A stretch of DNA of 64,000 nucleotides from the IMG/VR virus record IMGVR_UViG_3300033143_001219, positions 17,106 through 81,105 of that record. The stretch is one strand, 5' to 3'. Shown here one piece after another: positions 5,391 to 64,000 of the stretch; the first letter of the stretch is position 1, and every line of letters begins with the position of its first letter. The notes under the pieces are model-generated. The model was not told where the DNA came from, searched no databases, and saw only the letters and a list, made by a program, of their open reading frames with translations. The DNA is from a virus. Made by a program: the position numbers and the translations under genes.

Positions 5391-6650
5391 ATGAAAGCAG
5401 TATTAAGTAACAGAATATATTTAACTAGGACTCCTGAGTTACACAATAGTTTAATTGAAGAACTAACATATAGATTGCCACCTAAGAAACCGGGCAATCC
5501 CTATGAAATAGAATGTGATGTAACTAGAATCAATAAAGATATACTAACAATACCCTCAGGTAGGTTAGACTTAATACCTAAAGATTACGAAGTAGTAGAT
5601 AAACGTACGTTGAATCCAACTACGTTTCCTGAGTTTAAATTTACACTAAGAGAATCCCAGCAAGAGATATATGATTTAGTAGATGATAATTGTATGATAA
5701 TTGCTAACCCTAGTTATGGTAAAACATTCACGGCTATTTCAATTGCTACAAAGCTAAAGCAGAAAACTTTAATCATAGTACATACTAAATTTCTATTAGA
5801 ACAATGGGTAGATGAAATAAATAAAACTTTAGGCATTAAAGCTGGTATAGTAGGTGTAGGTAAGTTTAAAATTGATTCTCCTATAGTTGTAGCATTATTT
5901 CAAACATTGCGAAATAAAGGCCACACCATAAGTAAAGAGTTTGGTACTGTAATAGTAGATGAAGTACATCATACACCAGCTAAAGTCTTTAAAGGTATTG
6001 TTGATAAGTTTAATGCACGATATAAAATAGGGCTAACAGCGACACCTTGGCGCAAAGATGGCAGACATGTAATGTTGGCAGATTACTTTGGAATGAAGGA
6101 ATACAACCCTAAAGACGAGAATGAATTAACACCTAGTGTGATAATGGTTGAGTCAGGCATTAAGTTTGATTCTTCACCTATGACCCCTTGGGCTAATAAA
6201 GTGAATGAATTAGTTAATAATACAAATTACTTAGAACTAGTACTAAATCTAGCACAAATTCAGGCTCAGCGTGGACACAAAGTGTTAGTAGTAGCTGATC
6301 GTACCGAATTTCTCGAGACTTGCGCCGACGTCCTAGATAATTCGATGTGCATTATAGGAAACACAGAAGACAGAGATTTCTTAGGTAGTGGAAAAGATAT
6401 ATGTTTTGGTTCTATTAAAATATTTGCAGAGGGTGTAAATATGCCACCTCTCAGTTGCTTAATAATAGCAAATCCACTTAACAATAGAGGCTTGCTAAAA
6501 CAGCTAATAGGTAGAATAGCGAGACCGTGTGAGGGGAAGAAAAACCCTGAAATAATAGATATTATACTAACTGGTAAGACTGGTAAAAATCAAGCAGCAC
6601 AAAGAATAAGCTATTATACAGAGAAAGGATATAAAATTAAATACATATGA
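5391..6650 (+). CDS. Superfamily 2 helicase (T5 D10-like)
   Basis: PSYGKT, DEVHH, GLTATP and QLIGRIAR motifs. Confidence 0.92.
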   Translation: MKAVLSNRIYLTRTPELHNSLIEELTYRLPPKKPGNPYEIECDVTRINKDILTIPSGRLDLIPKDYEVVDKRTLNPTTFPEFKFTLRESQQEIYDLVDDNCMIIANPSYGKTFTAISIATKLKQKTLIIVHTKFLLEQWVDEINKTLGIKAGIVGVGKFKIDSPIVVALFQTLRNKGHTISKEFGTVIVDEVHHTPAKVFKGIVDKFNARYKIGLTATPWRKDGRHVMLADYFGMKEYNPKDENELTPSVIMVESGIKFDSSPMTPWANKVNELVNNTNYLELVLNLAQIQAQRGHKVLVVADRTEFLETCADVLDNSMCIIGNTEDRDFLGSGKDICFGSIKIFAEGVNMPPLSCLIIANPLNNRGLLKQLIGRIARPCEGKKNPEIIDIILTGKTGKNQAAQRISYYTEKGYKIKYI

Positions 6651-12295: not shown

Positions 12296-14335
12296 ATGCC
12301 AAGTACTAGAGCAGAGATTATAACAAGAAGAACATATAATAGACCTATTGACTTTGACGAAACAAGATTTGAAACTTGGGACGATACTATAGATAGAGTT
12401 GTTGGGCATCAAAGATGGTTATGGGAAAGAGCCTTAACACATAATAAACTTAAGAATATGCCTTTACATGATATCACGGAAGATATGCTAGAATGGGCAT
12501 ACTTAAATAGTGACCAAGAATATGAGTTAGAAGAGTTAAGAGAGGTCATGCTAGCACGTGAAGCTTTACCAAGTGGTAGAACACTTTGGTTAGGTGGTAC
12601 TGAAGTAGCAAAACGAAGAGAAGCTAGTCAATTTAACTGTGCACATTTAAATGTTGAAACAGTTTATGACGTTGTAGATTCTTTATGGTTATTATTACAA
12701 GGTACTGGTATTGGTGGTACTGCGAAAGTAGGTACTTTAACCGGTTTTAGAAAACCTATAAAAAATATACAAGTTATTAACTCTACTAGAACTGCTAAAG
12801 GCGGAAGATCTACTAATGAGGAACATTATATTAATGGTGTATGGACTATTTCAGTTGGTGATAGTGCTGAAGCCTGGGCTAAATCAATAGGTAAACTATT
12901 GGCAGGAAAATACCCAGCCCATACACTTATATTTGACTTCTCAGAAATAAGACCAGCAGGTGACAGATTAGCCGGATATGGTTGGATCTCTTCAGGAGAC
13001 GGACCTATATCTAGAGCGTATCCTAAAATTGCTGAGATACTTAATAAGAGAGCTGGTGGCCTACTTAGTAAGTTAGATATAATTGAAGTACTAAATCATC
13101 TGGGAACTGTCTTAAGTTCTAGACGATCTGCTGAAATTATGCTAATGGAGTATGGTAGTGATGAATGGTTAGAGTTTGCTAACTTTAAAGAGAAATGTTA
13201 TGAGGAAGGCTATATACATAGACAGCAATCTAATAACTCTTTAGTGTTTTATCAGAAACCTTCCAATGAACAACTGACAGAGATATTCGATAAGATGATA
13301 GCTGCTGGTGGTTCTGAACCCGGTTTTATTAATGGTCAAACTGCTAAAAACAGAGCTCCATGGTTCGCGGGAGTTAATCCTTGTGCAGAGATACTATTAG
13401 GTAACAAGTCATTTTGTAACTTAGTGGAGATTGATGTATCAAAATTTATTGGTAACAGCGCCGACCTTCATAAAGTAGCAACCCTTGTTGCAAGAGCAAA
13501 CTATAGACAGACTGTAGTTGATTTCAGGGATGGTGTGTTACAAGAAGCTTGGCATCTTAACAATGAATTCTTACGTTTATGTGGTACTGGTGTCACGGGT
13601 ATCGCGCAGCGCGATGATATGACAGAGTATGATTGGAAAGATTTACGTTACTCTGCAGTTACAGCTGCTAGAGGTATGGCGAATGAATTAGGTTTGCAAC
13701 ACCCAAAGAATGTAACCACAGTTAAGCCTAGTGGAACACTATCTAAAATAATGGATACTACAGAAGGCGTACATAAGCCAGCAGGTAAGTACTTATTTAA
13801 TTGGATTAACTTTAATGAGCTAGATCCCTTAGTTCAAAAATTAAAGGATGCAAATTATCGATCGTTGGTCAATCCTACTGATTCGACTGGTGTGTTAGTA
13901 TGCCTTCCAGTAAAATTTGAAAATGTAGATTTTACAACGAAAATAGTAACTAGATCTGACGGTTCTGAAGATGTTCTCGAAGTAACTGATGAATGTGCCA
14001 TAACGCAATTGGAAAGATATCGTAAGATTCAAACCCATTATTGTGACCAGAATGTAAGTAATACAATATATTACAATCCAGATGAAAAAGAAAAAATTGT
14101 GAATTGGCTGTTACAACATTGGGACGTATATGTAGGTGTTTCATTTCTGTTTAAGAATGACCCGACTGTAAGTGCTAAAGACCTAGGTTTTAGTTATTTA
14201 CCACAAGAGTATGTTACTAAAGTTAAATATGATGAATATGTTAAAGACATATTACCAGTTAATTTTGATAATACTGATTCTTTTGAAGAATTGGAAGAGG
14301 ACGACTGCCCACAGGGTGTTTGTCCTGTTAAATAA
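12296..14335 (+). CDS. nrdJ: Class II (adenosylcobalamin-dependent) ribonucleotide reductase
   Basis: RTYNR, PSGRTLW, FNC, NPCAEI, TTVKPSGT and C-terminal CPQGVCP; no beta-subunit gene adjacent. Confidence 0.9.
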   Translation: MPSTRAEIITRRTYNRPIDFDETRFETWDDTIDRVVGHQRWLWERALTHNKLKNMPLHDITEDMLEWAYLNSDQEYELEELREVMLAREALPSGRTLWLGGTEVAKRREASQFNCAHLNVETVYDVVDSLWLLLQGTGIGGTAKVGTLTGFRKPIKNIQVINSTRTAKGGRSTNEEHYINGVWTISVGDSAEAWAKSIGKLLAGKYPAHTLIFDFSEIRPAGDRLAGYGWISSGDGPISRAYPKIAEILNKRAGGLLSKLDIIEVLNHLGTVLSSRRSAEIMLMEYGSDEWLEFANFKEKCYEEGYIHRQQSNNSLVFYQKPSNEQLTEIFDKMIAAGGSEPGFINGQTAKNRAPWFAGVNPCAEILLGNKSFCNLVEIDVSKFIGNSADLHKVATLVARANYRQTVVDFRDGVLQEAWHLNNEFLRLCGTGVTGIAQRDDMTEYDWKDLRYSAVTAARGMANELGLQHPKNVTTVKPSGTLSKIMDTTEGVHKPAGKYLFNWINFNELDPLVQKLKDANYRSLVNPTDSTGVLVCLPVKFENVDFTTKIVTRSDGSEDVLEVTDECAITQLERYRKIQTHYCDQNVSNTIYYNPDEKEKIVNWLLQHWDVYVGVSFLFKNDPTVSAKDLGFSYLPQEYVTKVKYDEYVKDILPVNFDNTDSFEELEEDDCPQGVCPVK

Positions 14336-15401: not shown

Positions 15402-15818
15402 TTAATCTCCTACTATTTCAAAATGTACTAAGTCATCAAATTTATTATCGGTATAGTCATAATCTCTATCCCAATCACCACCCCACCTAATTGTAATCCC
15501 TTTCTTAGCAGCTTCATAAAAGATAATTGCTTTTAGTTCATAAAATTTAGTGCGTTCTTTCCATTCTGTAGCACCCCAATCTGTGGGAATTGGCCAAGGG
15601 GCCACATCCACTGCCATTGAGGGTATAGAATTATGTTTACTATTTGGCCAACTAACCTCTGAAAGGTTTTGGTCAAATTTAGCGTTTTGTTCTTCTTTTG
15701 TTCTGTGTCCTGTGATAATAGTACAATCATAATATTTAACGACTTCGCTTAATATATGAAGCCATCTAGCATCACAAGTACCTAATCTATCCCTAGATGT
15801 TCTTCCAAAATTTGGCAT
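15402..15818 (-). CDS. Endolysin, M15 L-Ala-D-Glu peptidase (T5 lys-like)
   Basis: GHRT, SKH, AVD, RWGGDW and DLVHFE motifs. Confidence 0.92.
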   Translation of the reverse strand: MPNFGRTSRDRLGTCDARWLHILSEVVKYYDCTIITGHRTKEEQNAKFDQNLSEVSWPNSKHNSIPSMAVDVAPWPIPTDWGATEWKERTKFYELKAIIFYEAAKKGITIRWGGDWDRDYDYTDNKFDDLVHFEIVGD

Positions 15819-16090
15819 TATCTTCCTCCGTGATGTTCTTTCTCATGTTCTCTAATATTTGAGCCACAATCAAGTAACTTAACAACTACTTTTGTTTCTG
15901 TAGGATTCCATCTTTCGTGATCCTGTTTAGCTGGAACAGCATCAACTTCTTCCTCAATGACTATAGTCTCTACTGGTGTAGTATCAGATAAATACGCCTG
16001 CATACCATTAGTACCAAATAAAGCTATTAAGAATAACCACATTTTATATGCGTCTACAAAAGCTTTAACTCTTTTATATAAGTTTTTCAT
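15818..16090 (-). CDS. Single-TM membrane protein (possible lysis accessory)
   Basis: Basic N-terminus then hydrophobic MWLFLIALFG; directly upstream of endolysin. Confidence 0.6.
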   Translation of the reverse strand: MKNLYKRVKAFVDAYKMWLFLIALFGTNGMQAYLSDTTPVETIVIEEEVDAVPAKQDHERWNPTETKVVVKLLDCGSNIREHEKEHHGGR

Positions 16091-16783: not shown

Positions 16784-17244
16784 TCAATTACAATACCCAG
16801 TGAATCATATGCATTATCGTCAGGATTTAAAGCACAACTGTGATGCGTGTACTTTAAGCCAATATTCATAACATCATCTGTTATCATGTTTTGAACAAAT
16901 CCAATGTTACTGGACAAACGGTTATTTATACCGCCCCCTTTACAAAATGGGCTAGGCCTTAATGTATTATCTATACCTACAAATACCGTTGCGCTGTCGA
17001 AATATGTTGTATCTGCCGCATTACTATTACCAGCATATAATATTCCCGCTAGAATAATGGGAACTATTAAGATTACTGATACTCCTTTCCATACTGAGGT
17101 TTTACCACCTTCCGCATGTACCCAGTTCTTCATAAACTGCTCCTTAGACCAGTTTGCTTTATAAAAGGCATACACTATTAGTGCGCCTAATAAAATCATT
17201 TCTAACCCTAGAAAGGTTAGTGCTTGTGCTATAAATATTTCCAT
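16768..17244 (-). CDS. Membrane/secreted protein with outer-membrane beta-strand C-terminus
   Basis: Two hydrophobic segments, SNA-A cleavage-like site, amphipathic strands, YTHHSCA, terminal GIVIEWKIW. Confidence 0.6.
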   Translation of the reverse strand: MEIFIAQALTFLGLEMILLGALIVYAFYKANWSKEQFMKNWVHAEGGKTSVWKGVSVILIVPIILAGILYAGNSNAADTTYFDSATVFVGIDNTLRPSPFCKGGGINNRLSSNIGFVQNMITDDVMNIGLKYTHHSCALNPDDNAYDSLGIVIEWKIW

Positions 17245-17254
17245 TTGTTTCTCC

Positions 17255-17608
17255 TTATAATTTTGCTTTAATTGCAGTTTTTAATTGTTGAACTGTTCTA
17301 CTAGGCAATCCTGCCTGAGTTCTAAGAATGTTAATTTCATCTAAAACGACTAAGGCGAAGGCTTTTAATGTTGAGTCAAAAACTAATTCTATATCTGCTT
17401 CAGCTGTTTTTTCTACATCAATTTCTATATCAATTGCAGCCTGATTAATGGTATCTAAACCATCATTAGTTGCATTTAGTCTCTCCGTTGTAGTATCAGG
17501 AGTATATCCTATCTGTAAACTTACCTGCGTAACTGAGTCCCAACGTAAATCATCATATTGAGAAAAAACTTCTATTTTCTTGGTTATTTTATTACATATT
17601 ACTTGCAT
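17255..17608 (-). CDS. Putative tail-fibre assembly/accessory protein
   Basis: Directly downstream of the long fibre gene, 1-nt overlap. Confidence 0.5.
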   Translation of the reverse strand: MQVICNKITKKIEVFSQYDDLRWDSVTQVSLQIGYTPDTTTERLNATNDGLDTINQAAIDIEIDVEKTAEADIELVFDSTLKAFALVVLDEINILRTQAGLPSRTVQQLKTAIKAKL

Positions 17609-19681: not shown

Positions 19682-20554
19682 TTATGCAACTGATCCTTTA
19701 ACCTGATCTCCATTATTACCACCATCCCAAGTTATAGAATTACCATTTAAACTAACTGCGTTACCAGCTGAACCACCTGAGCCTCCAGCATTAGTAGGAC
19801 ATATAGCGCTACCACTAGAAGTACCAGAATTACCAGTAATACCATATTCACCGCCATCACCACCAGCACCCGTAGCACCATTTGCTACATTTGTTAATGC
19901 ACCACCCGTACCACCTACTGTTGTACCTGCTAACCCTACATTACCTCCAGAACCACCGGATCCACCAGTATCACCGGCCCCGCCACCACCGCCGCCACCA
20001 TCTGCTTCACCTGCATCTCCACAAGTTCCAGTACCACCATATGAATGACCACCACCGCCGCCGCCGCCACCACCACTAAATACATCACCATTTGTATTAT
20101 CTATAGTTAAATCTAGTGTAGTAGTTATGGCATCTCCACCGTTATTACCAACAGAGCCTATAGGAGTTCCAGAAGTACCACCAGCTCCACCATCACCACC
20201 AGCTCCAATTATTTGTCCATTATTAATAATAGTTATTATTGAGCCTGAGGGAAAGTTTCCAATTGTTAGTGCAGCATTTGTTGTAGATGTTGAACCTATA
20301 ATTACTGCACTGTTAATTATTAGTTCATACTGAATAACTGCTGTAGGAGAATCAAATAAAGTAAACATATTTTGATCATCTGCATTTGTTGTAATTGTAT
20401 AACTTTTTAATGCATGTGATTTATGACCCGCTGCTGCTCTTAAACTTTTTAACACAGTTTTCTCCTGTTTTATTGGTTGTTCTATTAGTTGTTCTATTGG
20501 TTTATTTTTTATACCAAATAGTCTTTTAAAAAACTTTATAATGTTATTAAGCAT
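19682..20554 (-). CDS. Glycine-rich receptor-binding adhesin (T-even gp38-like)
   Basis: IINNGQIIGAGGDGG, GGDAI and FSGGGGGGGGG poly-Gly motifs; located among fibre genes. Confidence 0.75.
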   Translation of the reverse strand: MLNNIIKFFKRLFGIKNKPIEQLIEQPIKQEKTVLKSLRAAAGHKSHALKSYTITTNADDQNMFTLFDSPTAVIQYELIINSAVIIGSTSTTNAALTIGNFPSGSIITIINNGQIIGAGGDGGAGGTSGTPIGSVGNNGGDAITTTLDLTIDNTNGDVFSGGGGGGGGGHSYGGTGTCGDAGEADGGGGGGGAGDTGGSGGSGGNVGLAGTTVGGTGGALTNVANGATGAGGDGGEYGITGNSGTSSGSAICPTNAGGSGGSAGNAVSLNGNSITWDGGNNGDQVKGSVA

Positions 20555-21527
20555 AATTCTGTCCAACTAAGTTTCCACGCCACTTTGTACCTCCATCATA
20601 GGTGAATACTGTTACTACATCTTCGTTACCTGATGTAGTGCCCCATGTTGGTAAAATACCTCCATCCCAATCAACAGATGCTGGAAATGCAGGTACTCTA
20701 TTACCGGTACCATCTTGAATTAATACAAAAGTAACTGTGGTACTTTTGCCTGTTATTGGTATATTTGAAAAAGATATTGTAGTATTTCCCCCCATAGTTA
20801 ACTGAAAAAGACTTCCAGTACTTAAATCCGCAGTATATGTAGTAGTTGGGGTAGCTGTAATACTAGTTTCAGTAATTAGTTTTGTATCTATAATAGAGAA
20901 AGTATTAGTAAGTGTAAAAGTATTAGTAACTCCAGTACCCGCAGCACTCAACGTTGCTCTAGCTGCTGTTGCACTAGTATCATCAATAAGACTTGCACCA
21001 AAGGTGCTAATTGTTGTACTGGCAGGTAAAGAAATAGAACCTAAATCAGTATCTAAACCCAGTGTAGTTAATACTGTATTAGCATCAGCATCATCAACAA
21101 CAGTAGCACCGAAGGCGCTAATTGTTGTATTGGCTGGTAACGCTAAGGTTTTAATATCTGCATCAACTTCTGAATCCATTAAAGCACCGGCAGTAGTTAC
21201 ATTAGTTGTATCTGTTACATCTGCTAAAGCTTCTATAGCATCTAACTTAGTGCCATCAATAGATATATCTCTACCATCTACGGTTCCCGAGACTATTATG
21301 TTACCTGCTGTTAGTGTAACACCCCCTGTCGAAATAGTTAAAGCCCCAGTCATAGTTCCACCTGATAGATTTAACTTTAAATTAATTCCATCTAATAAAG
21401 TAGATTCACCATTTCTAGCTGTTTCTACTTCTGTATCTATAGCCTCACTAATAGTAATGAAGTTAGATATTTGCGTTGGGTAATCTATAGCGCCCACAGC
21501 TGGTATATAAGCTGAATAATTAGCCAT
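20547..21527 (-). CDS. Tail fibre protein 2 (326 aa)
   Basis: Shared anchor; GTVDGRDISIDGTKLD; C-terminal LIQDGTGNR..FP.SV.W.GG domain. Confidence 0.82.
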   Translation of the reverse strand: MANYSAYIPAVGAIDYPTQISNFITISEAIDTEVETARNGESTLLDGINLKLNLSGGTMTGALTISTGGVTLTAGNIIVSGTVDGRDISIDGTKLDAIEALADVTDTTNVTTAGALMDSEVDADIKTLALPANTTISAFGATVVDDADANTVLTTLGLDTDLGSISLPASTTISTFGASLIDDTSATAARATLSAAGTGVTNTFTLTNTFSIIDTKLITETSITATPTTTYTADLSTGSLFQLTMGGNTTISFSNIPITGKSTTVTFVLIQDGTGNRVPAFPASVDWDGGILPTWGTTSGNEDVVTVFTYDGGTKWRGNLVGQNYA

Positions 21528-54987: not shown

Positions 54988-56280
54988 TTAACTCCCTATT
55001 GTATCTACATTATATGAATGTGTATACATTGCATATCTTAATGCGTCTGGTAAATGTGAATGTAAGTGACTAGGTCTTTCATTAAGTAAGCCTATTTTAT
55101 CATCCCATACATAATTATCTAATGCGTTTAGTAGTTCAGTACAGGACTTATCTATATATAACCTGTCATGTTCTATCATACTACTAACATACCCAACTCC
55201 ATCCAATACTGACTTCTTAGCATTTACTGTTGTTATATCGTAATCGTATGCTAAATCATATCGTGTTTGTTGTGCTGCTGAATCAATATATATAAAGTCT
55301 ATATCATACTCATCTATTAGTTCTTGCAATGCTTTAGCATAATCAGAAGTCGCTGCTTCCTTATGGTAATATTCGCCTAGTGCGTACCAGTCATGCCCGT
55401 CTGTTGCAAGGACAACGATTGCTGTTGGATCTCTGAAACCCATATCCATACCAGCTATTACATCTAATATTTCTAGTTTTGAGACATCAATATCAACAAC
55501 GTTAGCTTTATTAATGTTCCAGATCTGACCTTGCATCGCAATGAAGTCGCCTTCATATTCTTGTGCAAACTCTGCTGTACTCATTGACTTTCTAGCGTCT
55601 TCTATATCTTCTGGGTTAGATCTTGGATTATCTGCGTATGTACTGTGTATAGACGCCCATTTAGGGTACTTGTCACTAAACCCGCGTTTGTAGAAATCAT
55701 AGAACCAGTTCTTACCACGAGGAGTAGATATAAAGATACATTTACTATTTGGTTTATCTAGTGTTGGTCGTAGTTGAATGTTGAAAGCTTTTTCACCATC
55801 GTTGTTTAATGCACACTCATCGAATATGATTAAATCGTAGCTACGTCCTACTACACTATCCACTTGCGTAACAGAACCAACTCTTATAGTAGATTCATTA
55901 GCAAGCTCAATTATCTTGTCTTTAGCGTTACTTTTAGTAAGTTCAATATCAAACGTATTTATTAATTTACGTTGTATGTCCCAGCTTACAGCCGAAAGGC
56001 TGTAGTTTGGGGCTATAACCAGTATATTCATACCGGGAACTAAAGTAACTAAATGACCAATTATATTAGATATTAAACTCTTACCTGTACGTCTAGCTAG
56101 TACAGCGGTTACAAATCTATATCTTGGGTCTTGAATTGCGTTTATAAGTGCTATTTGTGGGGGTACTGGTGTAATTCCAAGTAGTTCTACGTATTTCTCA
56201 ATAGGTAGTTTAATAAATCGTTCTTCTTGTGTAAACTCAGTTAGCTCCGTGCCACTAATGTCTTCCCTGCTTATATCCAT
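54988..56280 (-). CDS. terL: Terminase large subunit
   Basis: ARRTGKS Walker A, LIIFDE Walker B, FISTPRG, GMDMG and DALRYA. Confidence 0.95.
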   Translation of the reverse strand: MDISREDISGTELTEFTQEERFIKLPIEKYVELLGITPVPPQIALINAIQDPRYRFVTAVLARRTGKSLISNIIGHLVTLVPGMNILVIAPNYSLSAVSWDIQRKLINTFDIELTKSNAKDKIIELANESTIRVGSVTQVDSVVGRSYDLIIFDECALNNDGEKAFNIQLRPTLDKPNSKCIFISTPRGKNWFYDFYKRGFSDKYPKWASIHSTYADNPRSNPEDIEDARKSMSTAEFAQEYEGDFIAMQGQIWNINKANVVDIDVSKLEILDVIAGMDMGFRDPTAIVVLATDGHDWYALGEYYHKEAATSDYAKALQELIDEYDIDFIYIDSAAQQTRYDLAYDYDITTVNAKKSVLDGVGYVSSMIEHDRLYIDKSCTELLNALDNYVWDDKIGLLNERPSHLHSHLPDALRYAMYTHSYNVDTIGS

Positions 56281-59893: not shown

Positions 59894-60078
59894 GATTTGA
59901 AATATATAGTATGAAAGGGGGATTTACTGCGGAAGCGTGTGATACTGAAAGTGCTGAAGCATATAAAGTAACAGGTGTAGGTAAGACAATCAGTCTCGCG
60001 GTTGATGATGCACTTGTTGAACTTGGGAGGTTTAAGACAAAATGTTTAAAATTAAACGATTCTTCTGCTTGCATTTAA
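59890..60078 (+). CDS. Hypothetical protein
   Basis: ATGA coupling. Confidence 0.5.
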   Translation: MRFEIYSMKGGFTAEACDTESAEAYKVTGVGKTISLAVDDALVELGRFKTKCLKLNDSSACI

Positions 60079-60191
60079 ATTGGACTAGTAGTTATCAACT
60101 TATGTATGGTTATAGATTCTATAGGTGTTGTGATTGTGGGAAATTAAAAGAATTTAATGTATATAATCCGCCAATTAACTACGACTCCTGA
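60042..60191 (+). CDS. Small zinc-ribbon protein (49 aa, not in ORF track)
   Basis: GGGAGG RBS; FFCLH...CCDCGK. Confidence 0.5.
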   Translation: MFKIKRFFCLHLNWTSSYQLMYGYRFYRCCDCGKLKEFNVYNPPINYDS

Positions 60192-60313
60192 TAGGCACCT
60201 TGTAGCGAAACTCAGTTTCTTTGGATACCGTACGTGCGGAGGGGTGTAGAGAGGGAGGGTTAGACTGAGTCTAATAACCGCCCCCTACCATAGTCTCCTT
60301 TTATTGTCAACCC

Positions 60314-60751
60314 CTAAATAAATGCATTGTTGGCATGGTTTTTGAATGCAAAATTCTGTTCTGATATATTCGTGTCACGAATAACCACACTCATAAGAGG
60401 GCAATTATTATCATGCTCGGTTCCGAAGGCTGCGTGACATATCTCATGGAATACAACGTGACGAATGGCATCAGCTTTCATTGTCAACGTGGTCGCTGGA
60501 ATCCAGATAATGCAATCACGAATTCTAGCTGTTCCGAGAACTCCCGCTTGAATGCAATCGGTAATTCTCACATCAATGCGCGGCAACTCTGCCAGCTTCT
60601 TAGCTTCATAGATGAAGCCCATCACAATACGGCGCAGCTTATACGTGTCGCTATTCATATCTCGGTTATGGTGACGTGATGCAGTTTTATTTTTCATCTT
60701 CAAAAATCCTTGCCCCCGAAGGGGCTGTTGATTACTTCGTAACTTCGTCAA
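60314..60751 (-). CDS. SprT-like zincin metalloprotease
   Basis: VVFHEICHAAFGTEH...CPLM (HExxH with Met-turn-like motif); start uncertain. Confidence 0.7.
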   Translation of the reverse strand: MTKLRSNQQPLRGQGFLKMKNKTASRHHNRDMNSDTYKLRRIVMGFIYEAKKLAELPRIDVRITDCIQAGVLGTARIRDCIIWIPATTLTMKADAIRHVVFHEICHAAFGTEHDNNCPLMSVVIRDTNISEQNFAFKNHANNAFI

Positions 60752-60926
60752 AATATTCAGAGGCAGCGGTCAAATCTTGATTGAAATAATGACCCCAATA
60801 GCAGCTGGCTTTGGTATCACCTTCAAAGATTGAATAAGACCAAACAACATACTGACCGTTGAACTTGGCTAATACTTTGCCCTTCATTGCTTCGAAAACT
60901 TTCGCACCATTTTGTAACTCTAACAT
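60732..60926 (-). CDS. Hypothetical pre-early protein
   Basis: AAACGGGAG RBS; YWGHYF motif. Confidence 0.7.
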   Translation of the reverse strand: MLELQNGAKVFEAMKGKVLAKFNGQYVVWSYSIFEGDTKASCYWGHYFNQDLTAASEYFDEVTK

Positions 60927-60958
60927 TTTACTTCTCCCGTTTGTTAATTTCTATATTA

Positions 60959-60986
60959 ATTATAGCAGCTGATCCCCATTTGTCTA
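60959..60986 (-). promoter_or_regulatory. Sigma-70 promoter (extended -10)
   Basis: TAGACA-16-TATAAT with TGn. Confidence 0.7.
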
Positions 60987-61231
60987 CCACCTCAGTGAAA
61001 ATAAACCATTTATTTATGGTCAATTATTGACCACATCTATATTAGCATATTAGAATATTATAATATGCTTGCGCCAATTTTACCATACCAACCCCCTACT
61101 TGTCAATACCTATATATGGGTATTGACAAATAAACTTGGCACGAGGATTGCATGCCACCTATGCAAGACGCATGCCACATTAGAATATTATAATATACTA
61201 CTAGACAAGCAAGATGCGTGCCAACAGATGC

Positions 61232-61244
61232 TAAGTCATTGATT
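61232..61244 (-). promoter_or_regulatory. IHF binding site
   Basis: AATCAATGACTTA matches WATCAANNNNTTR, directly upstream of the sigma-54 box at 61208-61224. Confidence 0.65.
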
Positions 61245-61366
61245 TATAAGGCTATCTTTGTGTGCCACGAACTCACCCTAACATAGGCAATCATAAAGGG
61301 TACTCCAAGTGGGCTGAGACAGGCTGACAAGAGCTTAGGATTGATAAAAACTTGGCACGGTTTGTG

Positions 61367-61384
61367 AATGAGAACGATTCGCAT
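61367..61384. promoter_or_regulatory. Fur-box-like site
   Basis: TGAGAAC-G-ATTCGCA, 5/7 + 5/7 match to the 7-1-7 TGATAAT-N-ATTATCA. Confidence 0.4.
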
Positions 61385-61576
61385 CAAGAATCGTGCCAAC
61401 AGCATATGATTATATTATTATATTCTAATATAGATCTTCATTAGAATATTATTATATTAGACTATTCTAATATGCTTGGTATATTAGAATATGGGTATAT
61501 TAGAATATGCTAATATTGCGCCGTACCCTATATAAGCAAATGCTAATATACTAATATACCGTTCGTCGGATAGGTG

Positions 61577-61604
61577 TTGACACTGGGGGCTAATTTGCTA
61601 TAAT
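61577..61604 (+). promoter_or_regulatory. Sigma-70 promoter (extended -10)
   Basis: TTGACA-16-TATAAT with TGn, upstream of the AAACGGGAG RBS. Confidence 0.85.
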
Positions 61605-61630
61605 TACTACATTGAAACGGGAGATACAAA

Positions 61631-61720
61631 ATGTTAAACAAATTATTTATTCTTATTATTTTAGTCGGCGTTCCTTTATGGTTTGGCCTTTCTTCATTTG
61701 CTCACTTAGCGGGGTTATAA
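61631..61720 (+). CDS. 29-aa hydrophobic peptide
   Basis: MLNKLFILIILVGVPLWFGLSSFAHLAGL; promoter and RBS directly upstream. Confidence 0.65.
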   Translation: MLNKLFILIILVGVPLWFGLSSFAHLAGL

Positions 61721-61723
61721 AAA

Positions 61724-61870
61724 ATGCTTAATTTAATTACACTAAACGCTCTTATCTATACGCTGTTGAGCTTTCAAGCTAACCTATACGGCATGGATAG
61801 ATTAACCGTACTTTTTGTGTGTGTTACCATGTGTTTTGTTATTCCTATGGTTTTGATGGAGGAAAAATGA
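61724..61870 (+). CDS. 48-aa two-TM peptide
   Basis: MLNLITLNALIYTLLSF...LFVCVTMCFVIPMVLMEEK. Confidence 0.6.
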   Translation: MLNLITLNALIYTLLSFQANLYGMDRLTVLFVCVTMCFVIPMVLMEEK

Positions 61871-61956
61871 AATACTTACATTTACTATCAGCATTACTAA
61901 CGGGTTCAGCCTTTGCCATTATCACTTATTTAATTTGTTTATCTAATCAATTTTAA
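61867..61956 (+). CDS. 29-aa hydrophobic peptide
   Basis: GGAGG RBS and ATGA coupling; MKYLHLLSALLTGSAFAIITYLICLSNQF. Confidence 0.6.
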   Translation: MKYLHLLSALLTGSAFAIITYLICLSNQF

Positions 61957-61981
61957 TAACCTTATAAAACCCTCCCGTTTT

Positions 61982-62006
61982 AGCCCTACGAAATGTAGGG
62001 TTTTTT
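61982..62006 (+). terminator. Rho-independent terminator
   Basis: CCCTAC-gaaat-GTAGGG followed by T6. Confidence 0.8.
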
Positions 62007-62236
62007 AATTTCGGGTATATTAGAATATTCTAATATTCTAATATTGCGCCTTTCGCGATATAAGCATATTATAATATACTAATATGCTCTACCCCAGGTT
62101 CATTAGAATATTAGCATATGCTAATATGCGCCGATTATACACCTCACAAATACTTTCTGTCAATACCCACAAAGAGATATATACAAATGCTTGCCATGCG
62201 CTATAATTATTACAACTTAAACGGGAGATTCAAAAA

Positions 62237-62410
62237 ATGCATACTAAAGACACGAAACGGGTTTTGATCACTGGTCGCGATTCTGCGGGCGAAATTGTGA
62301 ATTTGCTTGAAATCAAACGCACGTCGTCTGTCGGTTTTCGGATTCACAAAAAAATGCATATTAATTCGATGCGGAATTATTGCGCGACGGTTACTTGCGA
62401 AAAACTTTAA
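62237..62410 (+). CDS. Hypothetical protein (57 aa, not in ORF track)
   Basis: AAACGGGAG RBS; TATAAT at 62202; terminator directly after. Confidence 0.65.
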   Translation: MHTKDTKRVLITGRDSAGEIVNLLEIKRTSSVGFRIHKKMHINSMRNYCATVTCEKL

Positions 62411-62415
62411 AAGGT

Positions 62416-62440
62416 AAAACCCGCGAAAGTGGGTTTTTTT
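62416..62440 (+). terminator. Rho-independent terminator
   Basis: AAAACCCGC-GAAA-GTGGGTTTTTTT. Confidence 0.85.
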
Positions 62441-62505
62441 AATTTCGGGTATATTAGAATATTATAATATACTAATTTGCGCCGATCCGGTAAGACGCTA
62501 CTCTA

Positions 62506-62534
62506 ATTATAACACAAAAAATCCATGCTGTCAA
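62506..62534 (-). promoter_or_regulatory. Consensus sigma-70 promoter with no downstream ORF
   Basis: TTGACA-17-TATAAT on the - strand; related copies at 61077-61106, 62134-62163 and 62587-62616. Confidence 0.7.
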
Positions 62535-62886
62535 CACTTATTTTCAGGTCGAATATTAGAATATTAGCATATGCTAATTTGCGCCGATTATATCACACCC
62601 ATCCCCTACTTGTCAATACCCATTAAGAGATATTGACAAATTAGTTGGCACGAAGTTTGCACCGACGCGAATATTAGAATATTATAATATACTAATATAC
62701 TAATATAGGTCTGGAGTATATTAGAATACAGTTATATTCTAATATTAGTAAGTTAGTATATCGTTATAAACTAATGGAGAATTGGCACGATTCTTGGTGG
62801 GCAAAAAACGTGCCAAAATATTAAGTTTGCATCTCGTTATAAAATAATGTTAAAATATCCGCAAGGAAAAAAAGGGGTATAGGATT

Positions 62887-63312
62887 ATGAAAAGCACAAA
62901 ATTTTTGGACACAATCGCGCTATGTAATAGTGAAGGTTTTGGTGGCGTGGATTATTACAGCAAAGGCGAAAATATAGCTGAGTTTCTTAATGAATATGAA
63001 ATAGAAACGGCTGGAATTGTAACAACAAAAGTGAAGGGCAAAATTGCGGGCTTCGTTTTATGGTATATAGAAAATAATGCTATTAATATATGTAGACGCG
63101 CAGTATATGAAAAATATCAGGGTTTAGGGTTAGGCGTTAAACTTACTAAACAGACTATGAAAATCGGGTTATCATTTGGCGCGCATTTTGAGACATACGC
63201 TAGTAACTGGAATTTAGCTAGTATAAATAGTTCTATAAAATGCGGTTGTTATATTACTAAAATAGGGAAGGATTATACATGCCTTTCAAATAAAAAACGG
63301 GTTAAAAAATGA
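62887..63312 (+). CDS. GNAT-family acetyltransferase
   Basis: AVYEKYQGLGLG acetyl-CoA motif A; N.ASINS..KCG motif B. Confidence 0.8.
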   Translation: MKSTKFLDTIALCNSEGFGGVDYYSKGENIAEFLNEYEIETAGIVTTKVKGKIAGFVLWYIENNAINICRRAVYEKYQGLGLGVKLTKQTMKIGLSFGAHFETYASNWNLASINSSIKCGCYITKIGKDYTCLSNKKRVKK

Positions 63313-63518
63313 AATGGCTGGAATATATAGGCGTACTACTGGCGGGTATTGGGTTTTCACTGTTATCTATTGGTATCTTAAAAATCGGTTTTATATTAGG
63401 CTTTATATCATGCCTGTTATTAATAACCTTTTTTAAACACAATAAATTAAATGGGCTTTTAGCCTTGCAAACTTTCTTTTTGTTTGTTAATGTATTTGGA
63501 ATATATAACAACTTTTAA
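63309..63518 (+). CDS. Small multi-TM membrane protein
   Basis: Three hydrophobic segments; ATGA coupling. Confidence 0.65.
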   Translation: MKWLEYIGVLLAGIGFSLLSIGILKIGFILGFISCLLLITFFKHNKLNGLLALQTFFLFVNVFGIYNNF

Positions 63519-63527
63519 GGGCTTATT

Positions 63528-64000
63528 ATGATAAAGAAAATTAAAATATATGATCTGGATGGAACACTTATAAATTCATTACATAGGTATAGAATAAATG
63601 CGCGTGGGCGTATCGACCTTGCACACTGGCGAAAAAATGACACTAGAAAAAATGTTTTAGATAATGACACTTTTCTCGATTTATATAAATGGCTGCGGGT
63701 AGATTTAGAACGTGCGGATACTTATGTAATTTTTGCAACTGCTAGGGCGTGTACTTATAACGACCACAACTATGAATTTTTAAAAAAACATAATATTATG
63801 CCTGACTTGTTTATTCATAGACAAGGCGAGAGCGACCAAAGAGGCGGGGCAGAATTAAAGATAGCAGCCATTAAGCCGCTATTAAATTTAAAACAATTTC
63901 AAAATGCCACTATACATATATTTGAGGATAATATACAATATTTACATGATATGGTTATATCATTAAAGGGTGACTTTTCAAAAGGTCGCAAGGTTGTAGG
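63528..64000 (+). CDS. HAD-superfamily phosphatase (3' truncated by window edge)
   Basis: IYDLDGTL motif I, ATAR motif II, K and FEDN motif IV; frame open to the window end. Confidence 0.8.
   Translation, partial: MIKKIKIYDLDGTLINSLHRYRINARGRIDLAHWRKNDTRKNVLDNDTFLDLYKWLRVDLERADTYVIFATARACTYNDHNYEFLKKHNIMPDLFIHRQGESDQRGGAELKIAAIKPLLNLKQFQNATIHIFEDNIQYLHDMVISLKGDFSKGRKVV

Follow-up and report, generated by a model that had tools for sequence, protein, structure and literature searches.

The DNA analysed here (the window, 64,000 nucleotides) makes up the final 64 kb of an IMG/VR virus contig of 81,105 bp, IMGVR_UViG_3300033143_001219 (G000 below), estimated to be 72% complete. Its large terminase subunit (TerL, positions 54988–56280 of the window, minus strand) showed about 48% identity to the TerL of cultured Demerecviridae, and the phage is a distant relative of T5. 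Close to the right end of the window lies a cluster of 17-bp boxes resembling the -24/-12 promoter elements of the alternative sigma factor sigma-54 (RpoN). The whole contig was scored against YTGGCACG-N4-TTGCW, which has 13 consensus positions, and every site scoring at least 11 of 13 fell between contig positions 77435 and 79921, corresponding to window positions 60330–62816. These nine boxes occupy 2.5 kb and are distributed as follows.

60330–60346, plus strand: box 0, TTGGCATGGTTTTTGAA, inside the 3' end of an open reading frame (ORF) of 145 amino acids
61136–61152, plus strand: box 1, TTGGCACGAGGATTGCA, full consensus, 30 nt upstream of and back to back with a leftward sigma-70 promoter (61106–61077)
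61162–61178, minus strand: box 2, GTGGCATGCGTCTTGCA, convergent with box 1
61208–61224, minus strand: box 3, TTGGCACGCATCTTGCT
61352–61368, plus strand: box 4, TTGGCACGGTTTGTGAA, with a weak -12 element
61369–61383, unstranded: Fur-box-like 7-1-7 palindrome, TGAGAACGATTCGCA, between boxes 4 and 5
61383–61399, minus strand: box 5, TTGGCACGATTCTTGAT, convergent with box 4
62645–62661, plus strand: box 6, TTGGCACGAAGTTTGCA, full consensus, 29 nt upstream of and back to back with a leftward consensus sigma-70 promoter (62616–62587)
62782–62816, both strands: boxes 7 (plus) and 8 (minus), an abutted convergent pair with a 19-nt offset, directly upstream of the operon for a putative GNAT protein, a membrane protein and a dmp-type 5'-deoxynucleotidase (dmp)

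Eight of these boxes had been listed in a sequence-only reading of the window, and all eight 17-mers were recovered by exact match at the places and on the strands it gave; box 0 was absent from that list. The heptamer TGGCACG occurred nine times in the window against 1.8 expected, a count reached in none of 100 shuffles, and seven of the nine copies were within 61137–62815. Similarly, TGGCAY-N5-TTG was found nine times against 1.0 expected, with seven occurrences in the same region. The description of the eight as -24/-12 elements was borne out for their presence and only in part for the -12 half: a full TTGC was seen in five (61136+, 61162-, 61208-, 62645+ and 62800-), the -12 element being TTGA in 61383- and TTGG in 62782+. 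Box 61352+ was the weakest because its TTGT is shifted by one base. A perfect YTGGCACGr-N3-TTGCW was present in two boxes, and GG-N10-GC in five. Six boxes had also been described as convergent pairs 1–14 nt apart, and three such pairs were indeed observed, with gaps of 9 nt (boxes 1 and 2), 14 nt (boxes 4 and 5) and 1 nt (boxes 7 and 8). Only box 62782+ faces the GNAT-dmp operon, 77 nt upstream of the GNAT gene as judged from the predicted start site. Boxes 61136+, 61352+ and 62645+ and the four minus-strand boxes face repeats or one another, and most boxes appear to serve no gene.

Relatives were picked from IMG/VR via TerL (46–81% identity). The phage records compared are given below as G001–G005 and as L-numbered loci. 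G001 is a 78-kb record and G002 a complete genome of 91.6 kb; G000 and the others are partial. The boxes were found in the same kind of place in TerL relatives sharing no alignable DNA with the region. Ten were counted in the whole record of G001 (within 4.7 kb), twelve in G002 (within 2.9 kb) and seven in G005, or eight if one box with a variant -12 element is included. The box stretch lies around the dmp operon in G000, G001, G002 and G005, covering 2.5–5 kb in the three large records and 7.5 kb in G005. The reversed pattern, used as a control, gave no hit in any record. Among cultured phages, the segment 60950–62880 had no blastn match in INPHARED at either near or distant settings.

The spacing of the two halves of the box was evaluated in the T5-like clade by conditioning solely on TGGCAY. 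The trinucleotide TTG stood at +11 in 72 of 329 unique occurrences, as compared to 3–9 at the other offsets from 7 to 16, and TTGC stood at +11 in 60 cases against 0–3 elsewhere. The positions left unconditioned matched the published sigma-54 consensus, with a T ahead of TGG, with TGGCAY followed first by a G, next by a purine and then by a stretch rich in T, and with a C at -12. According to the sequence-only reading, loss of the -12 spacing in relatives would have made TGGCAC a site for another protein. The spacing proved to be conserved, which argues for a motif of sigma-54 type and not merely TGGCAC, and the comparison as a whole supports the assignment of the boxes to sigma-54-type elements.

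The number and geometry of the boxes are unlike those of promoters, with convergent pairs 1–3 nt apart, five-box banks at 26–28 bp and pairs repeated three times with a 43-bp period. The four genes of one operon in G002 (for dmp, a membrane protein and proteins resembling A2 and an exonuclease) are targeted from either side by a tandem bank of five boxes, one bank having a period of 28 bp and the other of 26 bp, and each bank has one extra box of opposite orientation. The most characteristic arrangement is the abutted pair TGGCAYG-N4-TTGC-N3-GCAA-N4-CRTGCCA. With its 19-nt offset it is present at 62782–62816 in the window, in G001 and, twice, in G005, which has a third pair offset by 18 nt. 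In these three phages the pairs precede the -35 element of an early sigma-70 promoter by 9–30 nt. The exact pattern was retrieved from 38 IMG/VR contigs with GC contents of 37–61%, some carrying two or three tandem pairs, the triple ones with the 43-bp period. A search of 596 Gb of prokaryote genomes returned only five short contigs of metagenome-assembled genomes, and the abutted pair is essentially phage-specific. An interpretation of the convergent pairs as hairpins or cruciforms was rejected: complementarity of the arms at the four variable positions was 0.358 versus 0.357 for shuffled partners, and only one of 37 pairs was fully complementary. Chance-level complementarity points to selection on two protein sites and not on a hairpin.

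Two further motifs accompany the boxes. The 14-mer AAATCAATGACTTA (61232–61245, minus strand) fits the consensus of integration host factor (IHF), WATCAANNNNTTR, and exact copies were found in diverged relatives (G002 at 55565; G005 at 13789, 15491 and 16153; L132 at 4167). Its place in G005 is immediately behind a leftward sigma-70 promoter, and because of this location it may instead be a transcript start. The Fur-box-like palindrome TGAGAAT-N-ATTCTCA, often extended to GCGAATGAGAAT-N-ATTCTCATTCGC, gave 25 hits as compared to 3–6 in shuffles. It was near boxes in at least 11 other phage loci, namely L087 (6085–6155), L085, L107, L122 (four copies), L124, L127, L129, L132, L137, L139 and L142, and accompanies sigma-54 boxes and the end motif described below across several phage lineages.

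The position of the boxes relative to the genome end could be deduced from a motif, (T)AGTCT-NN-TAACCGCC, conserved among T5-type phages including the uncultured clade and the Vibrio phage D419. In T5 (NC_005859) it occurs at 27–42 and 111558–111573 alone, the second copy being equally far into the right terminal repeat. Vibrio phage phi3 (NC_028895) has it at 39–54 and, equally far into the right repeat, at 108408–108423; just outside that repeat are four further copies spaced by about 100 bp. The motif thus marks where T5-type genomes physically begin on the left, and it probably belongs to the site that the terminase recognises or cuts. The corresponding features of the window are the following.

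60268–60283, plus strand: T5-type end motif, AGTCTAATAACCGCCC
60229–60241, plus strand: predicted physical left end and start of the terminal repeat, the motif lying 27 nt (T5) or 39 nt (phi3) from base 1

The sequence ACGTGCGGAGGGG at 60232, before the motif, is similar to ACGTGAGGGTGGG, with which the phi3 record begins, and the two observations together place the predicted left end near 60229–60241. The boxes would thus be located 0.1–2.6 kb inside the predicted first-entering end, the region of the eight listed ones being 0.9–2.6 kb from it, and their DNA is presumably inside the terminal repeat. T5 DNA enters the cell left end first (Davison, 10.1101/866236). The idea that the region is terminal, first-entering DNA is thereby supported by homology of the end motif with T5 and phi3, the ends themselves being predicted. 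In several relatives the boxes were even closer to the motif. In both G002 and L085 an outward-facing box abuts it on the end side, with inward boxes on the other side: the five-box bank of G002 is 4 nt off, and the single box of L085 is about 77 nt off, beyond two Fur-like palindromes. Pairs follow the motif by 4–6 nt in L106 and L122, by 27 nt in L010 (the closest relative, with 81% TerL identity) and by 40 nt in G005, and single boxes follow it by 37 nt in L011 and 47 nt in the window. T5 and five enterobacterial phages related to it have no box at all.

The latter six Demerecviridae (T5, Sugarland, Slocum, phiR2-01, KEY and AAS21) represent about 700 kb. They have homologous small terminase subunits (TerS) and TerL, and at least T5 has A2. 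Since they are box-free, such boxes do not belong to the T5 injection-stop signal in general. Boxes were nevertheless present in cultured phages of Vibrio. In phage D419 (OZ195672, 114 kb, with A2, A1 and dmp) all six boxes, including one convergent pair, are within 103219–107182, beside the A2-A1-dmp operon. Phage phi3 has two boxes per terminal repeat, in non-coding gaps, one of them beside DnaA boxes. About 280 similar Vibrio isolates match the stretch carrying the end motif. These phages thus share with the window the same box in a pre-early region, beside the A2-A1-dmp operon, although the boxes are absent from their annotation; they differ in having fewer boxes, in possessing A1 and A2, and in a gene order like that of T5. 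RpoN is in use in the Vibrio hosts of these carriers, and the D419 group and phi3 offer cultured experimental systems for the boxes.

What binds the boxes was addressed from the gene content and from the motif itself. The enhancer-binding ATPase domain PF00158 had no match in G000, G001, G002 (complete), G003 and G005, and the sigma-54 DNA-binding domain PF04552 had none in the five records searched. The motif was unchanged across carriers of 37–61% GC whose terminases are only 20–29% identical. Because it is identical to the universal sigma-54 consensus in such different phages, a universal host factor appears to be the best explanation, and from the motif we consider with good confidence that the binder is sigma-54, free or in the holoenzyme. 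A2-like paralogues were found in G001, G002, G004 and G005, whereas neither A1 nor A2 was seen in the truncated G000. Per genome, two or three proteins of 111–139 amino acids that are related to the DNA-binding protein A2 of T5 and share a VRSKL motif flank the arrays (G001 20229–20645; L087 4983–5384 and 7907–8326; G005 15725–16060 and 16906–17262), and G005_118 matched T5 A2 with E = 2e-4 in a small database. No A2-like gene was found in the loci of about 4–14 kb fetched around the pair in carriers that are not T5-like, and a homologue of T5 A1 gave no hit in any uncultured related record, including the complete G002. The small terminase subunit and the A2-like protein were judged unlikely binders, as neither co-varies with the boxes; in the case of the terminase, boxes are missing in the six Demerecviridae with homologous TerL and present in phages whose TerL is 20–29% identical.

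Sigma-54 promoters are textbook elements, but they are not known to have a role in lytic phage genomes, let alone as arrays lacking an activator. What is new is the occurrence of such boxes as a conserved feature of the predicted leading end in a whole uncultured T5-related clade, in a position tied to the end motif and the pre-early promoters, and the abutted convergent pair as a phage-specific element. In the literature searched, phage genomes were not described as carrying arrays, decoys or promoters of the sigma-54 type, and Demerecviridae were connected with RpoN in a single report. In that report, rpoN and himA mutants of Salmonella resist the T5-like phage Aji_GE, and the authors' explanation is an indirect one, involving glutamine and RpoS (PMC8744999). 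In E. coli, the sigma-54 holoenzyme occupies many sites that are transcriptionally inactive (PMC4591121). The boxes described here share with the E. coli sites a 17-bp sequence with fixed spacing. Such sequences can be occupied by the holoenzyme with no initiation, and many of the E. coli sites have no obvious gene. The differences are in the density and setting: 9–12 near-consensus sites are gathered in 2.5–5 kb of phage non-coding DNA (7.5 kb in G005), many of them in abutted convergent pairs or tandem banks of 26–28 bp, and they adjoin the genome-end motif. Unlike with bacterial promoters, neither the complete relative nor the present partial contig has a recognisable activator gene.

A second comparison is with the terminal repeat of T5, in which paired DnaA boxes in mirror-image modules were proposed by Davison to bind host DnaA and stop injection (10.1101/866236). 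In both cases paired candidate sites for a ubiquitous host DNA-binding protein lie in non-coding, repeat-rich DNA at the first-entering end, a predicted end in the window; the mirror-image banks of G002 bracket pre-early genes, and the question is which host factor stops or holds the entering DNA. The implied factor is different, sigma-54 instead of DnaA: T5 is without a sigma-54 box, and the DnaA box TTATNCACA was not found in window positions 60,000–64,000. The T5 injection stop signal is distal, beyond the pre-early genes, whereas the window boxes are on the end-proximal side of dmp; the contig ends within dmp, short of where a distal bank like array A of G002 would lie. Moreover, A1 is not detectable in the complete relative G002. 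The resemblance of the region to the T5 repeat regions is one of layout. A third comparison is with cosB of phage lambda, in which R sites for the small terminase subunit are combined with an IHF site, and with other terminase recognition arrays. As there, inverted and direct repeats of a box of about 16 bp are accompanied by an IHF-type site and are close to the terminase genes and to the end of the genome. Unlike in cosB, the boxes do not co-vary with the terminase, and AGTCT-NN-TAACCGCC is a better candidate for terminase recognition.

We propose, tentatively, that the boxes are docking sites for host sigma-54 or its holoenzyme which act in cis on the leading-end DNA and are not ordinary phage promoters. 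Host sigma-54 would dock with high affinity, either as holoenzyme in a closed complex that does not initiate or as free sigma-54, on sites built into the non-coding, first-entering and probably terminally repeated end of this distant T5 relative. A stable host nucleoprotein complex would in this way be loaded in cis next to the end motif and to the strong pre-early promoters of sigma-70 type. Its local role might be to hold, cap or pause the entering DNA, or to insulate the early promoters. We infer both that sigma-54 is the binder and that the complexes do not initiate. The conserved position by the end motif and the early promoters argues for such a cis role over a free-floating sponge. A more specific version, which we regard as unlikely, is that sigma-54 RNA polymerase in non-firing closed complexes would form a structural brake or anchor setting the amount of DNA in the first entry step, and an end cap where a box faces the end within 10–20 bp (G002, L085). 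If true, it would name the host factor for the T5-type entry pause, the DnaA boxes being replaced by sigma-54 boxes in this lineage. This factor has been an open question for more than 50 years, for which the boxes give a testable candidate.

Several observations weigh against the proposed docking role. The enterobacterial T5-like phages do without boxes, and the boundaries of the terminal repeat in the window are predicted from the motif. Boxes spaced by 26–28 bp, or abutted in pairs, cannot all be occupied by holoenzyme simultaneously. The distance from the pair to the next -35 element varies (9–32 nt), and no fixed contact with the sigma-70 polymerase is therefore implied. Intragenic sigma-54 complexes in E. 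coli are not roadblocks to transcription (PMC4591121), which speaks somewhat against a transcription roadblock here. Lastly, some boxes are directed into pre-early operons from distances that promoters would have. Examples are 62782+ and array B of G002, five boxes of which point to the A2-like/dmp operon; 107168+ of D419 is also directed into such an operon, ahead of A2. Since the GNAT-dmp operon has only a weak sigma-70 candidate of its own, 62782+ may well have a promoter role.

These co-directional boxes would be well explained if the elements were genuine enhancer-dependent sigma-54 promoters, fired by a host activator, either already active or set off by infection, or by an unrecognised phage one, and giving extra or conditional pre-early transcription together with short non-coding or antisense RNAs. 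We consider this possible, if on the unlikely side. The match to the promoter consensus is perfect, pairs stand ahead of dmp or A2-like genes in L110, L116, L138, L139 and G005, and the conserved IHF-consensus site nearby is the usual partner of sigma-54 promoters. Some E. coli sigma-54 sites also drive mRNAs with long 5' untranslated regions (PMC4591121). However, an activator gene could be recognised neither in the complete relative nor in the partial contigs, approximately half of the boxes face nothing, one another or (G002, L085) off the predicted DNA end, and neither abutted pairs nor banks at 26–28 bp are known promoter layouts, the pair being nearly absent from bacterial genomes. The boxes are in addition confined to one region, with none before other gene blocks, and most units neighbouring them already have strong sigma-70 promoters. 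The absence of an activator and of genes to serve would also suit a sponge acting in trans, in which, upon replication of the phage DNA, hundreds of copies of 9–12 strong sites titrate a small pool of sigma-54 and switch off regulons such as Psp, Rtc RNA repair, flagella and nitrogen control. Banks at 26–28 bp would permit close packing of free sigma-54, given its footprint size. A location in the terminal repeat would double the dose, and for E. coli a decoy role of non-canonical sites has come under discussion (PMC4591121). Against this, a sponge could work from any place, whereas the position by the end motif and early promoters is kept in many relatives; with about ten sites per entering genome its effect would come late; sigma-54 regulons are not known to be linked to defence against these phages; and close T5 relatives are without boxes though their hosts have sigma-54. 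We therefore find this explanation very doubtful.

It is also conceivable, though we hold it to be improbable, that the boxes are sites for a phage DNA-binding protein (A2-like, the small terminase subunit or another regulator) and that their likeness to sigma-54 sites is coincidental. The inverted and tandem, iteron-like layouts are typical of sites for regulators, terminases (cosB-like, with IHF) or replication initiators, the boxes are near terminase genes and the end motif, and A2-like paralogues flank the arrays in T5-like carriers. Against this stand the identity of the invariant motif with the sigma-54 consensus at 13 positions in spite of the divergence of terminases and GC content noted above, the lack of boxes in the six enterobacterial phages that have the homologous terminase subunits (and, for T5, A2), the failure to find A2-like genes in the loci fetched around the pair in other carrier lineages, and the lack of a phage-encoded sigma-54 DNA-binding domain. 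That the boxes have no selected function, and are by-products of repeat amplification in repeat-rich non-coding DNA, seems to us highly improbable. The region is indeed rich in repeats, and the banks of G002 are perfect tandem copies which slippage could produce. However, boxes with differing spacers recur in relatives sharing no alignable DNA, conservation is limited to the consensus positions, and chance would yield about 0–0.2 boxes per 100 kb, in keeping with none in the 700 kb of enterobacterial T5-like genomes and none in the reversed controls. If sigma-54 does bind, the boxes would represent a new phage use of a host transcription factor, be it the cis nucleoprotein device that we favour, a sponge or a hidden promoter class with an unrecognised activator.

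The genes and transcription units surrounding the boxes are listed below.

60314–60926, minus strand: two leftward ORFs, of 145 (with a HEICH motif) and 64 amino acids, with a sigma-70 promoter at 60986–60959
61577–62437, plus strand: two cassettes, each of promoter, mini-ORF and terminator, with terminators at 61982–62002 and 62416–62437
62887–63998, plus strand: pre-early-type operon for a 141-amino-acid protein, a 69-amino-acid membrane protein and dmp, truncated by the contig end

The last ORF (63528–63998), cut by the contig end, is a dmp-type 5'-deoxynucleotidase with 32–33% identity to the T5, Klebsiella and Vibrio versions. The 141-amino-acid protein is read from its sequence as a putative GNAT; it had no PHROGs family, and an IMG/VR search for relatives returned none. 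Both terminators detected within the box region are rho-independent. The sequence-only reading held that the neighbouring genes have sigma-70 promoters of their own. This was confirmed for the leftward ORFs and for the mini-ORF cassettes, which have consensus promoters at 61577–61604 and 62180–62207 on the plus strand; it was not for the GNAT-dmp operon, where the weak candidate (TTGCAT-N18-TAAAAT, 62827–62857) was below the scan threshold and was read by eye.

The 145-amino-acid ORF (60314–60751, minus strand) adjoins the predicted genome end. Its HEICH motif is of the zinc-metallopeptidase type, no PHROGs family was found for it, and its counterpart in G001 has 101 amino acids and a HEMIH motif. 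In L116 (4740–4780) and, in mirror image, in L138, dmp appears to begin a few bases from the predicted start site of a TTGACA-N17-TACGAT promoter, right after a convergent pair, and the dmp mRNA of these two phages may be leaderless. L024 (441–560 and 2521–2660) has units without an ORF, each opening with a consensus sigma-70 promoter, after which come a start common to both, GAAAGTAGCG, then a GC-rich stretch, hairpins and lastly a terminator; judging from this layout, these control-region units are candidate small RNAs. An Rfam scan of 60500–63200 in the window gave no meaningful match, and a search for sequencing runs containing 60900–63900 listed none, whether of DNA or of RNA. Within the box region, four leftward consensus or near-consensus sigma-70 promoters (TTGACA-N17/18-TATAAT) have no ORF behind them (61077–61106, 62134–62163, 62506–62534 and 62587–62616). 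Each of them runs into clusters of a 20-bp palindrome, ATATTAGAATATTCTAATAT, of which there are about 15 copies in 61030–62760. Another phage-specific palindrome, CGTCAAAAAATTGACG, appears to have an equivalent role in L087, with about 14 copies in 5640–5870. The promoters without ORFs and their palindrome clusters may be operators for a phage regulator or genes for short RNAs.

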